Assembly (NCBI GenBank): GCA_964400385.1
Contig: CAYNUZ010000003.1
Span: 1 to 34,356 of the forward strand
Origin: an uncultured bacterium
GTDB lineage: Bacteria; Oederibacteriota; CAKKQC01
Length of the DNA stretch: 34,356 nt
Direction of reading: 5' to 3'
Shown here: in pieces, positions 4,674 to 12,368 of the stretch
How positions within the stretch are numbered: the stretch's first letter is position 1
How the letters are laid out: every line of letters begins with the position of its first letter
Notes under the pieces: generated by a model
The model's input: the letters and a program-made list of their open reading frames with translations, nothing else
What the model was told of the DNA's origin: nothing
Databases searched by the model: none
Position numbers and translations under genes: made by a program

Positions 4674-7600
4674 CTAATTGACCGTGACGCGGAAGCAGGC
4701 ACAGCCGGTTGTCTGGACGCCGGCCATCGGCACGGTCCACCGCAGCCACTTGGTGCCGACCGGCGGCAGCCCGGCGGCGAAGGAGGCGGCCGGCGGCGCC
4801 ACCGCGGAGGTCGAGGTGGACGACGAGACGGTCACCGCCACGCCGTCGGTGCTGCCGCAGTCGAACGGCGCGGTCGTGGCCTCCGGCAGGAACGTCGTCC
4901 CCATGGGGATGGCGTCGGTGATGACGAAACTGAACGCCGAGGCGCTGGAGTAGTTGCTCCAGCAGACCTGGAACCGCACGGTGTCGCCCGAGGCCGCGAT
5001 GGAGAGACCGGGCGTCTTGGTCAGCTTGACGTCCGCGCCGACGACCATCACCGTCGTCAAGCCCAGGATGGAGCCATCCACGGTGTCCATGCCCACGATG
5101 GTCTGGAGCCCCAGCTTGGTCATCGTCACGTTGATGAACATCTTGACCCCGTTGTCGCAGCCGTTGACGCACCCGGCGCCCTTGCACGGCGCGCCCGGGT
5201 CGTTCGAGTCCCACGTGTAGTTGTAGGTGTCCATGGGCGTCCCCTCGATCAGGGCCTTGGAGTCGGTCGAGGTGAACGAGGTGGAGCCGCAGTAGTCGGT
5301 CTTGGTGCTGCCCGCGCTGTCGATGACCAGGACCGTGATCCAGAACGACTGGCCGGCGAAGACGGTCGGGGGGGCGATGATGATGTAGTGGTCGCCGGTG
5401 CGGACGAACGGCGCCGTGAAGAACTTCTCGGTGATCTTCGCCTGGTGGTACTGGGCCACCATGTCGCCCTGGGCGCCGCCCGCGTTCAGCGTGATCCGGT
5501 AGTTGATCCGCGCCCCACTGCCGGGGTTGGTGAAGGGCATGAAGACGATCGCCTGGTCCACGCCGTCGGTCGTGTACCGGGCCGAGTAGCCGCCTCCCGC
5601 CGCGTTGGACGAGTTGATCTGGACGCCCATGCCGATCTTGGGGCAGAACACGTTGATGTACAGCGTGCCCGGCGTGCTCGCCACCGCGTGGTGGAACCAG
5701 AATTCCTGGCCGGCCTGCAATCCATCGGCGGAGTGGAGGTTGGACGCCCCGGACCAGTGGCTGAAGATGTTCCCGCCCGTATTGACCTGGATGGGCCCGC
5801 CGCCCGTCAACTCGATCTTCCAGAGCGTGGCGTAGGTGGTGGACGCCATGGTGGTGTCGTAGCCCCCGCCGTACACGTGCGCATTGCCGCTCACGCCGGC
5901 CAGCGGCGTCAGCCCCGGATTGACCGTGTCCGTCGCCTTCGGCAGCCAGATGCCCGCCGAGCCGGCCATCGTGGTCGGCCACGCGGTGCTCGGGACCTTG
6001 GTGTTCAGCGGCTGGTACTTGTAGACGCGGTACGTGGCCAGCGACCCCATCGAGGTGTTCCCGACGATGCAGTTCGGGGTCAGGCTCGGGTGCGCGATCG
6101 GGTAGAAGCTGCCCAGCCCGACCTGGGACACCAGGTTGCCGTTGTCCCGGTTGGGCACCATCCCGCCGTGGTTGTCGAACGCCCCGCCAATCCCCGGCGC
6201 GCCGAACGTGTGATAACCCTGGTAGATCATGTTCTGCGCGTCGGAGGAGATGATCCGGAAGTGGTAGATGGTGTCCACGGTCGGGCCGTAGGTCCCCTCC
6301 AGCGGCATCCAGCAGCTCTCCGCCGCGATGAACCCGGTCTTGACGTAGTCCCATGAGAGCGTGGCGGGGTTCCACTTGAAGAGGTGCACCGTCGTGTCCA
6401 GGTTCCCGTCAAACACATTGTTCGAATTCATGCTGGTGTTGATGATCACCAACCGGTCCCCGTGTCCGATGGTGTTCAGACCGTTCTGATCCGGACGCAT
6501 CGTCGTGTAGTGCATGAATCCGACGTACGACAGGCTGGTGGACGGCAGATACGTAAACGAGTCGTCGTTCGAATCGGATCCCTCGGTCATGGTGAGCCAC
6601 AGGATCGGCGAGTTCGAGGAGACCTTGTAGAGGAAGTCGAAGGGATAGGTCGGGCAGATATCGTCCCAGATGCCCGGCCAGTACATGGACGGGGCCCGCT
6701 CGATCTTGCACCCGGGGTTCGAAAGCCCGCCGTCGGCCGGATAGCCCCCGACGCACGACCCGACCAGCGTGTTGATGGTCGCGCTCTTCCCGCCGGTCAC
6801 CGCGACGCCGATGCCGGGGTACTCCAGCTTCCGGAACTCGAAGTTCGTGCTCATGTTGAGCGGGAAGAACGTCACGAAGAACCCGGGGCACACGCCCTTG
6901 TCGTCCTCCGAGGCCGCATAACTCGTGTACGAGAAGTAGGTGGTCCGGAGGATGATGATCGCCAGGTGCGTGAAGTTGGCCGGCTTGACCGAGCTGCCCG
7001 TCCCGTTGAAGATCCCCGTCCGCCCTTTTTCCAGCAGCGAGACCCGGTTGATGGCCGTCGAGTTCGCCGGGACGGTGGGCCGCAGTTTCGTCTTGTACCG
7101 CAGGGTCAGCGTGTACTGCGGAGCCATGTCCAGTGTCCAGGTGAGGATCGTCTTCGAACCGGAGAGCACCTTCCCGGCGCTGGCGGCGGCGCATCCGGAC
7201 GGCGTCATCGTCCAGCCCGTGCACGGATCCTCGAGGCCGTACCCCGGACCCCACACGTCCAGCTCCGCGGGGACCGTGTCCCAGACGCTCACGTTCCACC
7301 AGGTCTTCCGCAGCGAGACGTTCTTGAGGAAGATCTCGTACGTCATCTCGTCGTCCGGCACGCCGTAGCCCGCCGCGAACAGGATGTCGTTGCTCCCCAC
7401 CTTCCAGAAGAGGAACCGAGACACCACGGTGTCGGTCGGCGCGCTCACCATCGTCGGACTGCATGAGGCTCCGCCCCAGAACGACTGCGCGACGTTGTTC
7501 AGCCGCTGCCCCTCGGGCGCGGCGACGTCGCCGGATCCCGGCTCGAACAGCTCGCCGTTCCCCCAGTCCACCGTGAGCGAGAAGATGACCGATCCCGTCG

Positions 7601-8495
7601 GACCGCCGGCGGTCGCGAGCGGGCCGGGGATCGTCCACCGGAGGCGGATCGGCGGCCCGATATCGGGATCCCACAACGGGTCGGCGGCGGGCACCGCGCT
7701 GCCGGTGACGTAGTGGGTAAACGGGGGCACACTGTCAATCAGCGTGATGGGGGAAATGGCCGCCGTCCCCGGCCGGCCGTAGTAGATCGTGTACGTGATG
7801 GTGTCGCCCGGCGCCGCGGCGTCCAGGTTGCCCTCCTTGGTGAGGTACCGGATCTCCTTGGGCGTGGTGTCGGTCGTGTCCGCCCACGGCGCCGACCACC
7901 CGCACGTGTCGTACAACCCGCCGGGATTCGCCGGGTCGATGATGTCGTTGAATCCGGGCCCGAGCTCCACGGTCGCGCCGTCGGTGGGACACGACCCGAT
8001 GTCGGTGTACACGTACAGGTTGGGATACCCGAGGCAGGCGGTGGTCGGGTCCGTGCCAAACGGGATCGCCCCGGCCCACGTCCAGCACGGGTAGGTCTGG
8101 ATCCCGATGGTCCACACGCCGGCGTAGGTCATCGTGACCAGGCCCGAGTTTGTGCCGCCGCAGATCAGCTGGAAGTACATCGCCTTGATGTCGCCCGCCG
8201 CGCCCCCGCTGGCCGTGCCGTAGTTCATCATCGTGAGCCCGGTGATCGAGGACGTCGGGCACCCGCACGTGAGGTCGTCGCATTCGCCGATCACGAACGA
8301 GGACTGGGGAACGTGGTACCAGTTGGGGAAGATCGTCTGGTAGTTGGAGAAGGGGGCGATGGGGTTGGCGAGGAAATCCACGAACCCGTCCGCCCGCGCG
8401 GCGTCCGCCGCCAGCACGCACATCGCGATCGCCGCCATCCGGATGAACGCGCCCCCCCGCGCGCCCGGTTCCTGGCGGCACTGCCGGGTCGTCAT
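4674..8495 (-). CDS. 1273-aa secreted cell-surface protein. Architecture: signal peptide, Cys-rich N-domain, three DUF11-type repeat modules, one Ig-like module and a ~560-aa unassigned beta-rich core
   Basis: Signal peptide AFIRMAAIAMCVLAADAARA|DG. DUF11/conserved-repeat-domain signatures at aa ~216-310 (YLTKEGNLDAAAPGDTITYTIYY...LIDSVP), ~360-472 and 1154-1273 (VKLTKTPGLSIAASGDTVRFQVCW...ITDAIPMGTTF). G/C third positions remain high throughout. AGGAG lies 10 nt upstream of the ATG. Confidence 0.9.
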   Translation of the reverse strand: MTTRQCRQEPGARGGAFIRMAAIAMCVLAADAARADGFVDFLANPIAPFSNYQTIFPNWYHVPQSSFVIGECDDLTCGCPTSSITGLTMMNYGTASGGAAGDIKAMYFQLICGGTNSGLVTMTYAGVWTIGIQTYPCWTWAGAIPFGTDPTTACLGYPNLYVYTDIGSCPTDGATVELGPGFNDIIDPANPGGLYDTCGWSAPWADTTDTTPKEIRYLTKEGNLDAAAPGDTITYTIYYGRPGTAAISPITLIDSVPPFTHYVTGSAVPAADPLWDPDIGPPIRLRWTIPGPLATAGGPTGSVIFSLTVDWGNGELFEPGSGDVAAPEGQRLNNVAQSFWGGASCSPTMVSAPTDTVVSRFLFWKVGSNDILFAAGYGVPDDEMTYEIFLKNVSLRKTWWNVSVWDTVPAELDVWGPGYGLEDPCTGWTMTPSGCAAASAGKVLSGSKTILTWTLDMAPQYTLTLRYKTKLRPTVPANSTAINRVSLLEKGRTGIFNGTGSSVKPANFTHLAIIILRTTYFSYTSYAASEDDKGVCPGFFVTFFPLNMSTNFEFRKLEYPGIGVAVTGGKSATINTLVGSCVGGYPADGGLSNPGCKIERAPSMYWPGIWDDICPTYPFDFLYKVSSNSPILWLTMTEGSDSNDDSFTYLPSTSLSYVGFMHYTTMRPDQNGLNTIGHGDRLVIINTSMNSNNVFDGNLDTTVHLFKWNPATLSWDYVKTGFIAAESCWMPLEGTYGPTVDTIYHFRIISSDAQNMIYQGYHTFGAPGIGGAFDNHGGMVPNRDNGNLVSQVGLGSFYPIAHPSLTPNCIVGNTSMGSLATYRVYKYQPLNTKVPSTAWPTTMAGSAGIWLPKATDTVNPGLTPLAGVSGNAHVYGGGYDTTMASTTYATLWKIELTGGGPIQVNTGGNIFSHWSGASNLHSADGLQAGQEFWFHHAVASTPGTLYINVFCPKIGMGVQINSSNAAGGGYSARYTTDGVDQAIVFMPFTNPGSGARINYRITLNAGGAQGDMVAQYHQAKITEKFFTAPFVRTGDHYIIIAPPTVFAGQSFWITVLVIDSAGSTKTDYCGSTSFTSTDSKALIEGTPMDTYNYTWDSNDPGAPCKGAGCVNGCDNGVKMFINVTMTKLGLQTIVGMDTVDGSILGLTTVMVVGADVKLTKTPGLSIAASGDTVRFQVCWSNYSSASAFSFVITDAIPMGTTFLPEATTAPFDCGSTDGVAVTVSSSTSTSAVAPPAASFAAGLPPVGTKWLRWTVPMAGVQTTGCACFRVTVN

Positions 8496-8637
8496 TGTGC
8501 CGTCACTCCTGCTCCCGCCTCGATTCTAGCCCACCGGCCCCGTTCGTGCCTCCCCGGGGACCCCCGAGGGGTGCGTCCGCCCGGCCCACGCCCCCCTGCG
8601 CCACCGCAAATCGGGCGGCCAGGGCGGCCCCGGGACG

Positions 8638-9402
8638 TCATCCTCCCTCCGCGTATCCCCAGCGGCGCCGGACCCACCGCTCCAGTCGCCGGAAGGCGAG
8701 GTAATCCACGGTGGACCCGATCGCCACGATGACCAGCATGACCCCGAAGAGGGCCGCGACGTCCCCGGCCTTGCGGCCCTGCAGGAGCAGGAACCCCAGT
8801 CCGCGGTCCACGTCGAGAAGCTCCGCTGCCATGAGGCTCCGCCATGCGAAGTTCCAGCCCTGCTTGGTCCCGGCCAGCATCGCGGGAAAGGCGGCCGGAA
8901 AGATGACCCGCACGTAGACCGCGGCCCCCTGCGCCCCCAGGGTCCGTCCCGCCCGCAGGAAGATCGGCGGGACATTCTGGATCGCGGTCCAGGTCGTGGC
9001 GGCGATGGTCGGCAGCGCACCCATCACCACCACGAACAGGATGGCCGGTTCGCCGCGCTGGAACCAGAGGACGGCCAGGGGCAGCCAGCACACCGACGGG
9101 AGGGTCTGGAGGCCGAAGACGATTCCCCCCAGCGACTCGCTCAACCGGCGGGACCGCGCCACCAGGATGCCGAGCGCCACCCCGGCCACGACGGAAAGCC
9201 CGAACCCGGCCAGGAGCCGGGTAAAGCTGGCGGCCGCGCCCCATCCCAGCGAACCGTTCCGGACCCCGGCGGCGAGGTACGCGGCGACGGCAGCCGGACC
9301 CGGAAACATGGCGGGGGGCCAGAGCCCGGACCCTGCCAGCGCCCACCAGGCCACGAAGAGCGCGGCGGGAACGGCCGCCCGGTGGAGCCCGAGGCGGCTC
9401 AC
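8638..9402 (-). CDS. ABC importer permease, NitT/TauT (SsuC/TauC/ThiX-like) family
   Basis: Multi-TM protein with a binding-protein-dependent permease loop (AAELLDVDRGLGFLLLQG) and overall resemblance to SsuC/TauC. The GTG start overlaps the ATPase stop (GTGA). Confidence 0.9.
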   Translation of the reverse strand: MSRLGLHRAAVPAALFVAWWALAGSGLWPPAMFPGPAAVAAYLAAGVRNGSLGWGAAASFTRLLAGFGLSVVAGVALGILVARSRRLSESLGGIVFGLQTLPSVCWLPLAVLWFQRGEPAILFVVVMGALPTIAATTWTAIQNVPPIFLRAGRTLGAQGAAVYVRVIFPAAFPAMLAGTKQGWNFAWRSLMAAELLDVDRGLGFLLLQGRKAGDVAALFGVMLVIVAIGSTVDYLAFRRLERWVRRRWGYAEGG

Positions 9403-10196
9403 AGCGACTCCTCGGTGCGGGTGACGGGATCCACCCAGGAGGAGATGCCCGCGCGCAGCTCCTTGGCGATCCGGAGCACGGGCGCGTCATCCACGGACCG
9501 GGGACGCGGCAATTCCACCCGGATCTCCCGGGAAATCCGGCCGGGGCGCGCCGACAGCAGGACCACCCGGTCCCCCAGCGCCACCGCCTCCTTCAGGCCG
9601 TGCGTGACGAAGACGAAGGTGCACCAGGTCTGTTCCCAGAGTTCCTGCAGTTCCCCCTGCAGCCGCTCACGCGTGTGGGAGTCCAGCGATGAGAACGGTT
9701 CGTCCATGAGGAGGAACTTCGGCTCCATGGCCAGGCCGCGCGCGAGCGCGACCCGCTGCTTCATCCCGCCGGACAACTGGTGGATCAGGGACCGGCGGTT
9801 CTCCCGCAGGCCGACCAGACCGAGGTACTTGTCCACCCGGTGCTCCGCCTCGGCGGGCGCCAGGTCGAGCCGCTCGAGCCCGAACCGCACGTTGCCCTCG
9901 ACCGTCAGCCACGGGAAGAGGCCGAGATCCTGGAAGAGCATGACCCGTTCCGGGGACGGCCCGGTGACCGCGCGCCCCTCGGTCAGGATTTCGCCCCCGT
10001 CCGGACGGTCGAAACCGGCAATCATCGAAAGGATCGTGGATTTTCCGCACCCGGAGGGTCCGACGATCGTCAGGAACTCGCCCCGGCGGACGGAGAACGA
10101 GATGCCGTCCACGGCGTGCACCTCACCGTCCTCGCCGGCAAACCGCTTGGAGAGGCCCTTCACGTCCAGCACGACCGGTTCCTGGGGCGACGTCAT
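9399..10196 (-). CDS. ABC importer ATP-binding protein, NitT/TauT family
   Basis: Walker A GPSGCGKST, signature LSGGMKQRVALARGL, Walker B FLLMDEPFSSLD, H-loop VTHG. The canonical N-terminus MTSPQEPVVLDVKGLSKRF starts at ATG 10196. The 90 extra residues in the track ORF are low complexity and lie over the riboswitch. Confidence 0.93.
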   Translation of the reverse strand: MTSPQEPVVLDVKGLSKRFAGEDGEVHAVDGISFSVRRGEFLTIVGPSGCGKSTILSMIAGFDRPDGGEILTEGRAVTGPSPERVMLFQDLGLFPWLTVEGNVRFGLERLDLAPAEAEHRVDKYLGLVGLRENRRSLIHQLSGGMKQRVALARGLAMEPKFLLMDEPFSSLDSHTRERLQGELQELWEQTWCTFVFVTHGLKEAVALGDRVVLLSARPGRISREIRVELPRPRSVDDAPVLRIAKELRAGISSWVDPVTRTEESL

Positions 10197-10294
10197 CGCG
10201 GCAGGGTCGAAGCGCACGCGGGACACGGGCGGGATCGGACGGCGGACGGATGGAGGGGGCGGACACGGGGGGACGGCACGGCGGCACGGTTCAC
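10193..10294 (-). CDS. candidate 33-codon leader ORF, translationally coupled to the ABC ATPase
   Basis: GTG 10294 lies 6 nt after a strong SD (AAGGAGG, 10307-10301). The frame reads VNRAAVPSPRVRPLHPSAVRSRPCPACASTLPR, and its TGA shares ATGA with the ATPase ATG. The ATPase has no SD of its own. Confidence 0.4.
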   Translation of the reverse strand: MNRAAVPSPRVRPLHPSAVRSRPCPACASTLPR

Positions 10295-10300
10295 GGGATT
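10201..10300 (-). repeat. degenerate short-repeat tract (CCGTG x5, CCGTCC x3, CCCGTGTCC x2)
   Basis: Counted by hand on the minus strand. The 9-mer CCCGTGTCC occurs at 10269-10261 and 10229-10221, exactly 40 nt apart. Confidence 0.6.
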
Positions 10301-10311
10301 CCTCCTTCGGC

Positions 10312-10426
10312 CTATCGTTCGGGGCGCCTCGCGGCGCTCCCCTGGCGTTCCCACCTCGCCCCCGCGCAGGCCGGAGGCCGGTTGGAGAAGGGTCATCGGG
10401 CCAGTCCCTCGCCTTCCTCTTGATAG
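10312..10426 (-). promoter_or_regulatory. SAM-I (S-box) riboswitch aptamer
   Basis: Minus strand reads CUAUC AAGAG GAAGG C GAGGGA CUGGCCC GAUGA C CCUUC UCCAACC ... GGUGGGAACGCCAG GGGAGCGCC GCGA GGCGCCCC GAAC GAUAG. The invariant S-box blocks are present: AUCAAGAG, GAGGGACUGGCCCGAUGA, CAACC, GGUGnnAAnnCCAG and closing GAUAG. P1, P2 and P4 helices can be drawn by hand. Confidence 0.8.
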
Positions 10427-10468
10427 CGTCGCGTGCCGGGTTGGCTCTCCCGGTCGCCGACTTCAAGA

Positions 10469-10497
10469 ATTACAGCACCCGGGTTGGGGGCTGTCAA
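10469..10497 (-). promoter_or_regulatory. near-consensus sigma70 promoter: TTGACA - 17 nt - TGTAAT with extended -10 TGc
   Basis: Minus strand reads TTGACA (10497-10492), gcccccaacccgggtgc, TGTAAT (10474-10469). This stands out in ~70% GC DNA. The predicted TSS near 10462 gives a ~265-nt leader. Confidence 0.7.
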
Positions 10498-10520
10498 GAA
10501 CCGATGTATATAAGGAAGGC

Positions 10521-12368
10521 ATGTGGCGCCTGCTCTCGCTCCTTGCCTGCGCCGCGGCGGCCCGGGCCGGCCTCCTCCCGCCGCCCCGCGAACTTCGGAC
10601 GGGTGCGGGGGCGGCGCTCGACCTGCGGGCGGGCTGCCGCATCGTTGCAGCCAACGCGGCGGATCCGCGGCCGGCCCGCTACCTGGCCACGGAGCTGGCC
10701 GCCCGCGGCATCGCGGTCGGCGCCGCCGGACCAGGGGTCACGCTGGTGATCGAGGGGGGAACCGGCACCGGCATCGCCGCGCAGGGCTACCACCTCGCCG
10801 TCTCCCCGGCCGGGGCCACGCTCCGCGCGTCCTCCGCCGCAGGCGCGTTCTACGGCGGCGTGACGCTGCTCCAGTGGATGGATGCCGCCGGGGGGCCCGC
10901 GGCGGTTCCCGCCGTCGACATCGAGGACGCGCCCGACCTGGCGCTGCGCGGGCTCACCATCGACTTCCGGTACGCCGGCCTCTCCGAGGCCCGCATCCGG
11001 CGGGCCATTGATCGCGCCGCCTCGCTCAAGGCCAACCTGCTTGTCTGGTGGCTCCAGGACCGGTTCGCCTGGAAGAGCCATCCCGAGCTCGCAGGGCCGG
11101 GGGCCCTCTCGGCCACCACCTGGAAGGACCTGGTCGCCTACGCCGACGCCCGGTTCATCCAGATGGTCCCGTACGTGGACGCCTATGGCCACGGCGAGCG
11201 GTACCTCGAGTCACCGGGGTGGAAGGCGGTGTCCCGTGGCGAGCACGGGTACTGGGGGGAGGACGACCTCCAGTACTGCGCCTCCCACCCGCAGTCGTGG
11301 ACCCTCTTCGACGACCTGTCCCGCGAGGCGGCGGCGGTGTTCACGAACTCCCCCTGGCTGCATGTCGGCATGGACGAGGTGGGGGCGCAGGACGGCCACC
11401 TCTGCGCGGAGTGCCGGGCCGCGGTGAGGAGCATCGCGAAGGCCTCCGGGGAACCCGCCCCGTACCCCGCCGCCCGCAACCGGTTCGTGGCCCGCCGGCT
11501 CGCCGAGGCGGCCCGCCGGGCGGCGAAACTCGGCCGCCGGGTCATGTGCTGGGACGACTCCGCGACGGACGTGGGGACGCTGGCGTTCGGCCCGGGCGGG
11601 ATCGACGCCGTGCCCGACGGCGTCATGCCGCTGCTCTGGCACTACGACGCCGATCCGGGCCCGCTTCGCGCCGCCCTCGCGCGGCCCGCCGCCCGCCGGT
11701 TCCCGACCCTCGTGGCGACCTCGTCGAACGACCCGGACAACATCCTGCACGACCTGGCGGCGACCCGCGACTTCCCCCAGGTGGCCGGCGCGGTCGCCAC
11801 GATCTGGGAGGGGGATGTCCGCGGGTTCGAACGGCGGTGGCCGGGGTTCACGCTGGCGCTCGCGCTGGGCTGGAACCGGTCCACGACCGGCGCGGCGTGG
11901 GACCAGGCGGAAGCGGAAGGGCCGGCGGGCTGGACGCCGCTGGCCGATCCGGAGGGGTGGCTTCCCGACGGCGCGGATTCGCCCGCCGCGGTCCGGTGCC
12001 CCGCGGCCTCCCGGGCCGTCCGGTTTCCCTGCCCGTTTCCCGGGCTCACGGACTGGCGCTGCGTCTGGGACGCGGCCACGCGACTGGACCTCTCCGCCAT
12101 GATGTCCGCCCACCTGCGGGTCCGGGCCGCCGATCCCGACGCGGTCGGGTCGCTGGTCGTCTACTTCAAGTCCGGCCCGGGGTGGTACCGGATGCCGGAC
12201 CTGCATCCGGCCCGCGCGTGGGTCACGGCCGAATGGTCCCTCGGCTCCGCCCTGCCGGAAGGCAAACCGGCGGGGTGGAAGGCGGTGGATGGCGTGCGCG
12301 TGAGCCTGTTGCCGGCGGCGGGTCCCCGGCGGACGACGACGGTGGACCTGGAGTTCCCCGCGGACTGA
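10521..12368 (+). CDS. secreted glycoside hydrolase family 20-like (beta-N-acetylhexosaminidase-like) protein with C-terminal extension
   Basis: Signal peptide MWRLLSLLACAAAARA; GH20b-like N-domain (GYHLAVSPAGATLRASSAAGAFYGGVTLLQ); barrel start APDLALRGLTIDF; HVGMDEV Asp-Glu pair. The track ORF start at 9780 is rejected. Confidence 0.8.
   Translation: MWRLLSLLACAAAARAGLLPPPRELRTGAGAALDLRAGCRIVAANAADPRPARYLATELAARGIAVGAAGPGVTLVIEGGTGTGIAAQGYHLAVSPAGATLRASSAAGAFYGGVTLLQWMDAAGGPAAVPAVDIEDAPDLALRGLTIDFRYAGLSEARIRRAIDRAASLKANLLVWWLQDRFAWKSHPELAGPGALSATTWKDLVAYADARFIQMVPYVDAYGHGERYLESPGWKAVSRGEHGYWGEDDLQYCASHPQSWTLFDDLSREAAAVFTNSPWLHVGMDEVGAQDGHLCAECRAAVRSIAKASGEPAPYPAARNRFVARRLAEAARRAAKLGRRVMCWDDSATDVGTLAFGPGGIDAVPDGVMPLLWHYDADPGPLRAALARPAARRFPTLVATSSNDPDNILHDLAATRDFPQVAGAVATIWEGDVRGFERRWPGFTLALALGWNRSTTGAAWDQAEAEGPAGWTPLADPEGWLPDGADSPAAVRCPAASRAVRFPCPFPGLTDWRCVWDAATRLDLSAMMSAHLRVRAADPDAVGSLVVYFKSGPGWYRMPDLHPARAWVTAEWSLGSALPEGKPAGWKAVDGVRVSLLPAAGPRRTTTVDLEFPAD

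Follow-up and report, generated by a model that had tools for sequence, protein, structure and literature searches.

A probable SAM-I riboswitch, just short of the Rfam gathering score, in the leader of a NitT/TauT-family ABC transporter operon from an uncultured bacterium

The window analysed here is a stretch of 34,356 nucleotides from an uncultured bacterium, in which two overlapping genes for an ABC transporter of the NitT/TauT family lie on the minus strand. The first encodes a 265-aa ATPase (9399..10196; ABC_tran, 1.7e-33) and the second a 254-aa permease (8638..9402; BPD_transp_1, 8.9e-22), with the permease start overlapping the ATPase stop as GTGA. A first-pass annotation of this DNA had placed such an ATPase and permease downstream of a SAM-I riboswitch on the same strand, and both were confirmed by these domain matches. 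The best NCBIfam matches were SaoA, NtrCD and TauB for the ATPase and SaoP, NtrB, TauC and SsuC for the permease; as all of them were under their equivalog cutoffs, no specific substrate was assigned. Both proteins are full length and have a coding-type third-position GC of 0.87. Their closest relatives come from metagenomes, with orthologs 82-86% identical for the ATPase (82% to locus L003 and 86% to L001, the closest ATPase relative) and 63-69% for the permease (63% to L003). The N-terminus of the ATPase, MTSPQEPVVL, read from ATG 10196, aligns with MANHEPVVL in L003. A 332-aa, Arg-rich ORF at 9490-8492 on the minus strand, which had probably been taken for the permease at first reading, was rejected, as it is off-frame, has no family match and overlaps the true permease (9402-8638); the ORF at 8492-9490 is an annotation trap of high-GC DNA.

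Upstream of the transporter genes, the plus strand carries a divergent GH20 gene whose start is at 10521. The next minus-strand gene (4674-8495) encodes a secreted-looking protein of 1273 aa with a C-terminal DUF11 repeat, and a 44% identical counterpart follows the permease in L004 (1010-4282). A promoter-like -10 sequence, which is TAGAAT in the window, is present in the 140-nt gap before the DUF11-repeat gene in both, and these genes probably form transcription units separate from the transporter. Elsewhere in the window the genes are for sugar metabolism, ABC-type efflux, a LolA-like protein and the like, and none of them is a sulfur gene. No relatives of the orthologous binding proteins or porin were found in the 34-kb window by tblastn, and an HMM of four orthologous binding proteins gave a best E value of 2.6 in the window, in line with the initial description of the importer as lacking a binding-protein gene.

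The leader between the GH20 gene and the ATPase could be aligned with four others (L003, L086, L090 and L091) over a region that starts at an invariant TTGACA, includes the aptamer and ends at the start codon. In the window, this -35-like hexamer is at 10492..10497 (minus strand) and is followed, 17 nt later, by the -10-like hexamer TGTAAT (10469..10474, minus strand); the hexamer found at this spacing is TAGGCT, TAGTCT or CATACT in the sister leaders. We infer from the leader alignment that these form the leader promoter, which would imply a transcription start near 10463-10461. A consensus promoter scan called no promoter in the leader, the -10 hexamer failing the rule of the scan. Downstream, a conserved GUCGRCGR precedes a 5-bp hairpin, CCGGG-AGAGCCAA-CCCGG (10436..10453, minus strand), and a 9-nt linker separates the hairpin from the aptamer. 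This 5' hairpin, which is outside the Rfam SAM-I model, is common to the window, L003, L090 and L091, absent from L086, and shows compensatory changes at two of its five pairs (C-G/G-C and G-C/U-A/C-G). A weak match to the Na+ riboswitch RF03071 was found at 10439-10492 on the plus strand (19.6 against a threshold of 40.5 bits, E = 0.09) and was judged to be due to chance; it is on the strand of the GH20 gene and overlaps the promoter and 5' hairpin region.

The aptamer itself is at 10309..10429 on the minus strand. The letters of 10429-10309 were identical to the leader sequence quoted in the first-pass annotation (quoted part 10426-10312), and the 18-nt core block GAGGGACUGGCCCGAUGA occurs in the window as a single exact copy with no mismatches; in the shuffle control, at least one match with up to two mismatches was seen in 13 out of 100 shuffles. 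In a permissive Rfam scan of the region 10150-10600, RF00162 (SAM-I) matched 10429-10309 on the minus strand with 42.8 bits over model positions 1-108 of 108 (cmscan; E = 1.5e-8, a value that refers to the 451-nt search). The pair table has the four-way junction in its canonical order: P1 (CUAUC/GAUAG, 5 bp, 10426-10422 with 10316-10312), P2 with its kink-turn GA motifs (GAAGG/CCUUC, including the GA/UGA kink-turn motif, 10416-10387), a long, GC-rich P3 (10386-10350) and P4 with one bulged A (10346-10317). The P1, P2 and P4 pairings drawn by hand at first reading therefore hold. The RF00162 alignment places the kink-turn motifs at 10410-10409 (GA) and 10397-10393 (GAUGA), and complementarity between the P2 loop and J3/4 provides the pseudoknot (CUGG 10404-10401 with CCAG 10345-10342), a pairing that is invariant in all five sequences. 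The conserved RF00162 blocks were all matched (AUCAAGAG, GAGGGACUGGCCC-AUGA, CAACC, GGUG-AA-CC and GAUA), and so were all the upper-case consensus positions, including AAGAG in J1/2, CAACC/GGUG in P3, AA..CC in J3/4 and the A-U pairs of P1. Computed ORFs overlap the aptamer on both strands (10396-10193 and 10466-9399 on the minus strand and two on the plus strand), in agreement with the earlier remark that the aptamer was hidden under a spurious ORF.

At gathering thresholds, the Rfam scan of the whole window gave no matches. The gathering score of RF00162 is 44.4 bits, an operational, curated cutoff and not a structural feature, and the window aptamer is 1.6 bits under it. The features that lower the score are the short P1, in which the three outer model pairs are mismatched, the long, GC-rich P3 and the bulged A in P4. 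The minimum-free-energy fold of the isolated aptamer recovered P1, P2b and P4, and the folding energy was no better than that of shuffled sequences (z = -0.44), a value that is expected at 72% G+C, is uninformative and counts neither way.

The sister leaders provided the comparison needed to interpret this score. In L003, the aptamer (RF00162, 45.2 bits) is followed by a Shine-Dalgarno sequence and by genes for a porin (porin_O_P), an NMT1-type binding protein, the ATPase and the permease, and the binding protein passes the SsuA-family cutoff (192 against 163.5 bits). L090 and L091, which were found via the porin, have the same layout, with aptamers of 40.9 and 40.5 bits, respectively. L086, found by a DNA-pattern scan of metagenomes, carries the same aptamer subtype (1132-1248, 52.6 bits) with a Shine-Dalgarno sequence directly 3' of P1 and then, from 1256, a sulfate ABC transporter binding-protein gene that passes the NCBIfam cutoffs, an arrangement suggesting that several sulfur-uptake systems belong to the SAM-I regulon of this lineage. 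The sister aptamers thus straddle the 44.4-bit cutoff, and metagenomes that are independent of one another have the aptamer in an unchanged position ahead of orthologous genes.

Covariation, which had been proposed as a check on homologous leaders, was assessed by writing the SAM-I structure onto the alignment of the five sequences, a small sample, and counting pairs. Across the five aptamers 95.6% of cells pair, compared with 31-52% in slid controls, and the covariation score was 0.242 against 0.062 in shuffles, with none of 500 shuffles reaching 0.242. In six pairs both partners have changed, with one such pair in P2, two in the distal part of P3 and three in P4. These compensatory changes support helices P2, P3 and P4, while P1, P2b and the pseudoknot are invariant in the five sequences and so provide no covariation evidence. 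A covariance model built from the five aptamers (R1) gave the window aptamer 104.7 bits. The first-pass annotation had held that a score under the RF00162 cutoff would count against the aptamer, and the score is indeed under it; we consider that yardstick too strict as a refutation, because the match is full length at E = 1.5e-8, the orthologous leaders straddle the cutoff and the helices covary. The SAM-I assignment was therefore kept despite the score, as the core blocks, P1 to P4 and the pseudoknot are all present, and we are highly confident that 10429-10309 is a genuine SAM-I aptamer.

A Shine-Dalgarno sequence, AAGGAGG (10301..10307, minus strand), starts 4 nt past the 3' strand of P1. 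Its counterparts in the alignment are the Shine-Dalgarno sequences that precede porin in L003, L090 and L091, and in all five leaders the Shine-Dalgarno sequence is 0-4 nt past P1. In the window, AAGGAGG does not serve the ATPase start directly: six nt beyond it is GTG 10294, which opens a Pro/Arg-rich ORF of 33 codons (10193..10294, minus strand) ending at TGA 10195-10193, and this stop overlaps the ATPase start codon as ATGA. GTG 10294 aligns with the start codons of the porin, the first regulated gene in the orthologous leaders, and no purine-rich Shine-Dalgarno sequence is present in the stretch upstream of the ATPase ATG. From this arrangement the 33-codon ORF is probably a translated coupling ORF, although an open frame of 33 codons ending in ATGA is not improbable in DNA of 70% G+C.

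The best explanation of the locus is likely to be a SAM-I riboswitch in the 5' leader of a two-gene operon for an Ssu-like (NitT/TauT) importer of sulfur compounds, working as a translational OFF switch. When SAM is abundant, it would bind the four-way-junction aptamer and stabilise the short, 5-bp P1. The folded, ligand-bound aptamer would then make the ribosome-binding site that starts 4 nt past P1 unavailable, and translation from GTG 10294 would drop. Synthesis of the ATPase and the permease would be expected to drop with it through translational coupling via the 33-codon ORF, because no separate Shine-Dalgarno sequence serves the ATPase, whose ATG is overlapped by the stop of the short ORF. 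Rho acting on the untranslated leader could possibly reinforce the repression. That the element is an OFF switch for the ATPase and permease is a well-favoured part of this reading, while its action at translation initiation by occlusion next to P1 is only somewhat better than an even bet.

The initial suggestion that regulation is translational is plausible, with no terminator-like sites found in 9900-10800, as had been noted at first reading, and with the Shine-Dalgarno sequence placed 0-4 nt past P1. Fold comparison, duplex energies and the leader alignment gave no conserved masking or anti-Shine-Dalgarno helix. The accessibility of the Shine-Dalgarno sequence showed no consistent change between free folds and folds in which the aptamer was constrained. 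CCUCC-like stretches located 40-60 nt inside the coding region, considered as candidates for a dedicated anti-Shine-Dalgarno element, pair with the Shine-Dalgarno sequence in some constrained folds, and their duplex energies are ordinary for the composition (p = 0.11-0.94). Two further pairings work in some leaders and break in L091: a helix that encloses P1, in which the conserved 5' GUCGRCG would pair with the linker downstream of P1, and a duplex between the 5' hairpin and the start region. In the free fold of the window, the Shine-Dalgarno sequence pairs with the 3' strand of P2 (CCUUCUCC), a pairing that is not conserved in L003, L090 and L091.

This result also fits a different reading, in which the aptamer is real and control is mainly transcriptional, through Rho-dependent termination after the untranslated leader or short ORF, or through an unrecognised attenuator. 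The 100-nt stretch after the start codon is C-rich and poorly structured, and RNA of this kind suits Rho loading. However, there is no intrinsic terminator, and a Shine-Dalgarno sequence kept so close behind P1 in five leaders suggests initiation as the controlled step. We consider mainly transcriptional control unlikely, though still worth weighing, and the two mechanisms are not mutually exclusive.

The gene content raises another alternative, that the ancestral porin and binding-protein genes were lost and that the riboswitch and the transporter remnant are decaying and non-functional. The window has neither a binding protein nor a porin, both of which are present in L003, L090 and L091, a short ORF of no recognisable family stands where the porin gene starts in those loci, and the aptamer scores under the gathering cutoff. 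Against this, every conserved aptamer position and helix is intact, and sister aptamers before complete operons score lower still (40.5 and 40.9 bits). The ATPase and permease are full length, with ortholog identity and third-position GC of the coding type, and the same pair without an adjacent binding protein recurs in L001, L088, L092, L094 and one JGI contig, making this a recurrent layout. No trace of a deletion was found in the sequence either. The 33-codon ORF has no BLAST similarity to porin or binding-protein genes, and its local alignments to the 5' end of the porin gene or the 3' end of the binding-protein gene were comparable with those of dinucleotide shuffles (p = 0.17-0.93), so that its origin as a deletion remnant is not supported by these comparisons. 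We regard a relic as improbable; a chance resemblance to SAM-I in GC-rich intergenic DNA, which could draw on the sub-gathering score and a folding energy no better than shuffles, is effectively refuted by the E value of 1.5e-8 over the full model and by the recurrence of the element, with compensatory substitutions, in the corresponding place upstream of orthologous genes from independent metagenomes.

Compared with the classical SAM-I or S-box element (RF00162; yitJ of B. subtilis and metF of Thermoanaerobacter tengcongensis), the window element has the same P1-P4 four-way junction, the P2 kink-turn, a pseudoknot joining the P2 loop to J3/4 and the blocks AUCAAGAG, GAGGGA..GGCCC..UGA, CAACC, GGUG..AA..CC and GAUA, and it likewise belongs to the leader of a gene for sulfur or methionine. 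In Firmicutes, classical S-box leaders terminate transcription, whereas the window has no terminator/antiterminator platform. It also differs in the P1 of only 5 bp and in the long, GC-rich, bulged P3 and P4, which together result in scores at or under the cutoff (40.5-52.6 bits in the subclade), and in the extra conserved 5' hairpin in four of the five leaders. The host is likewise different, being an uncultured bacterium of 70% G+C with diderm-type neighbours (LolA-like and HlyD proteins in the window and the porin in the orthologous operons). The cysH sulfate-assimilation operon of B. subtilis is reportedly controlled by an S-box.

A possible parallel in mechanism is the SAM-I riboswitch of Xanthomonas campestris, SAM-I(Xcc), which represses translation and has no intrinsic terminator (PMC7270179). 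The two share the SAM-I aptamer, a Gram-negative-type organism and the missing intrinsic terminator. The expression platform of SAM-I(Xcc) is long and includes defined hairpins against the Shine-Dalgarno sequence and the AUG, and the RNA binds uncharged initiator tRNA as well (PMC7270179), whereas in the window the Shine-Dalgarno sequence starts 4 nt past P1 and no anti-Shine-Dalgarno element was found. With regard to the controlled genes, a SAM riboswitch is listed in Bacillus methanolicus MGA3 before BMMGA3_03030-ssuA1-ssuC1-ssuB1, annotated as 'sulfonate uptake' (PMC4342826). Both cases would place a sulfonate-type (NitT/TauT) ABC transporter under SAM control; the B. methanolicus operon is from Firmicutes and includes a binding-protein gene, whereas the window has only the ATPase and permease behind a short ORF. 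SAM control of an ssu-type operon is therefore already annotated, and the window element is not the first case. The first-pass annotation had called the context atypical, which was overstated given this precedent (PMC4342826), the SsuA-family or NMT1-type binding proteins encoded in L003, L090 and L091, and the location of more distant relatives in sulfate-assimilation clusters.

The sulfur context of the transporter family is wider than its SAM control. ATPase relatives at 58-67% identity are found amid cysD, cysN, cysH, cysNC, sulfite reductase, cysteine-synthase-type, peroxiredoxin and sulfatase genes, and we infer that the transporter serves sulfur acquisition. A sulfonate, a sulfate ester or a related anion is suggested as the substrate by the SsuA-type binding protein and the anion-selective porin. 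Genes for a peroxiredoxin/redoxin (AhpC/1-Cys Prx type) and a sulfatase recur beside the transporter in L001, L003, L045, L090, L095 and the JGI contig. A binding-protein gene is next to the transporter in L003, L045, L089, L090, L091 and L095, and the importer of the window probably relies on a binding protein encoded elsewhere. In this unusual reading, the riboswitch would gate a 33-codon coupling ORF placed before an importer that uses a binding protein from elsewhere.

In L089, a 75-bit SAM-I aptamer heads a PALP (Cys)/ThiS/ThiF cluster, which continues into binding protein, ATPase, permease and CysD. The R1 model recovered this distant aptamer with E = 1.2e-8, which confirmed its sensitivity. 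Among 80 reference-genome relatives (43-53% identity), R1 found nothing credible and a strict regular expression for the core gave no SAM-I. SAM-I control of the transporter is thus limited to a narrow clade plus L089. Most of the more distant relatives in sulfate-assimilation clusters carry a different leader.

At seven loci outside the window, a second motif precedes the same NitT/TauT transporter clade or its sulfate-assimilation cluster, and SAM-I is absent at that position. The motif is about 45-90 nt long and has the form GCUUUAAG..CAACUUGCYCCGGC, a variable hairpin and ACAGGRGCUAAAGCGG, followed in all seven copies by an intrinsic terminator. The copies are in L001 (624-668), which carries no SAM-I, L045 (2537-2600), L088 (5835-5914), L089 (4875-4919), L092 (4830-4917), L094 (3118-3185) and L095 (849-916). 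In L045, the motif is before the same porin, binding protein, ATPase and permease operon that bears SAM-I in L003; in L095, it is before the sulfite reductase gene at the head of the cluster; and in L089, it is directly before the binding-protein gene, with SAM-I heading the upstream genes. Permissive scans of the L001 and L088 leaders against Rfam 15 returned no family. A model built from the copies in L001, L088, L089 and L045 (R2) matched each of the three independent loci that were added afterwards (L092, L094 and L095; E = 1.6e-7 to 1.8e-11), in none of which SAM-I was found. Covariation in the motif amounts to one pair (C-G to U-A, in a ratio of 4:3).

From its sequence and position, the second motif is a candidate for a new riboswitch or attenuator of sulfur uptake. 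Our searches of the literature on the motif and on riboswitch candidates in sulfate assimilation found nothing relevant. There is a possibility, which we put forward tentatively, that SAM-I and the second motif are interchangeable leaders of the same sulfur-uptake operon and that the second motif could be an undescribed riboswitch class sensing SAM or another signal of sulfur sufficiency.

To summarise, the value of the window is mainly one of annotation, and the second motif is the more interesting result, being a testable riboswitch candidate for sulfur assimilation. The Rfam gathering threshold misses the SAM-I element of the window and two of the four sister aptamers, and a GC-rich, short-P1 SAM-I subclade of uncultured bacteria is therefore under-called by this threshold. 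Through the SAM-I leader, a clade of NitT/TauT transporters that is otherwise uncharacterised is linked to sulfur and methionine status, and the SsuA-type binding protein, the anion-selective porin and the sulfatase and CysDN neighbours support a role for these transporters in the uptake of an anionic sulfur source.
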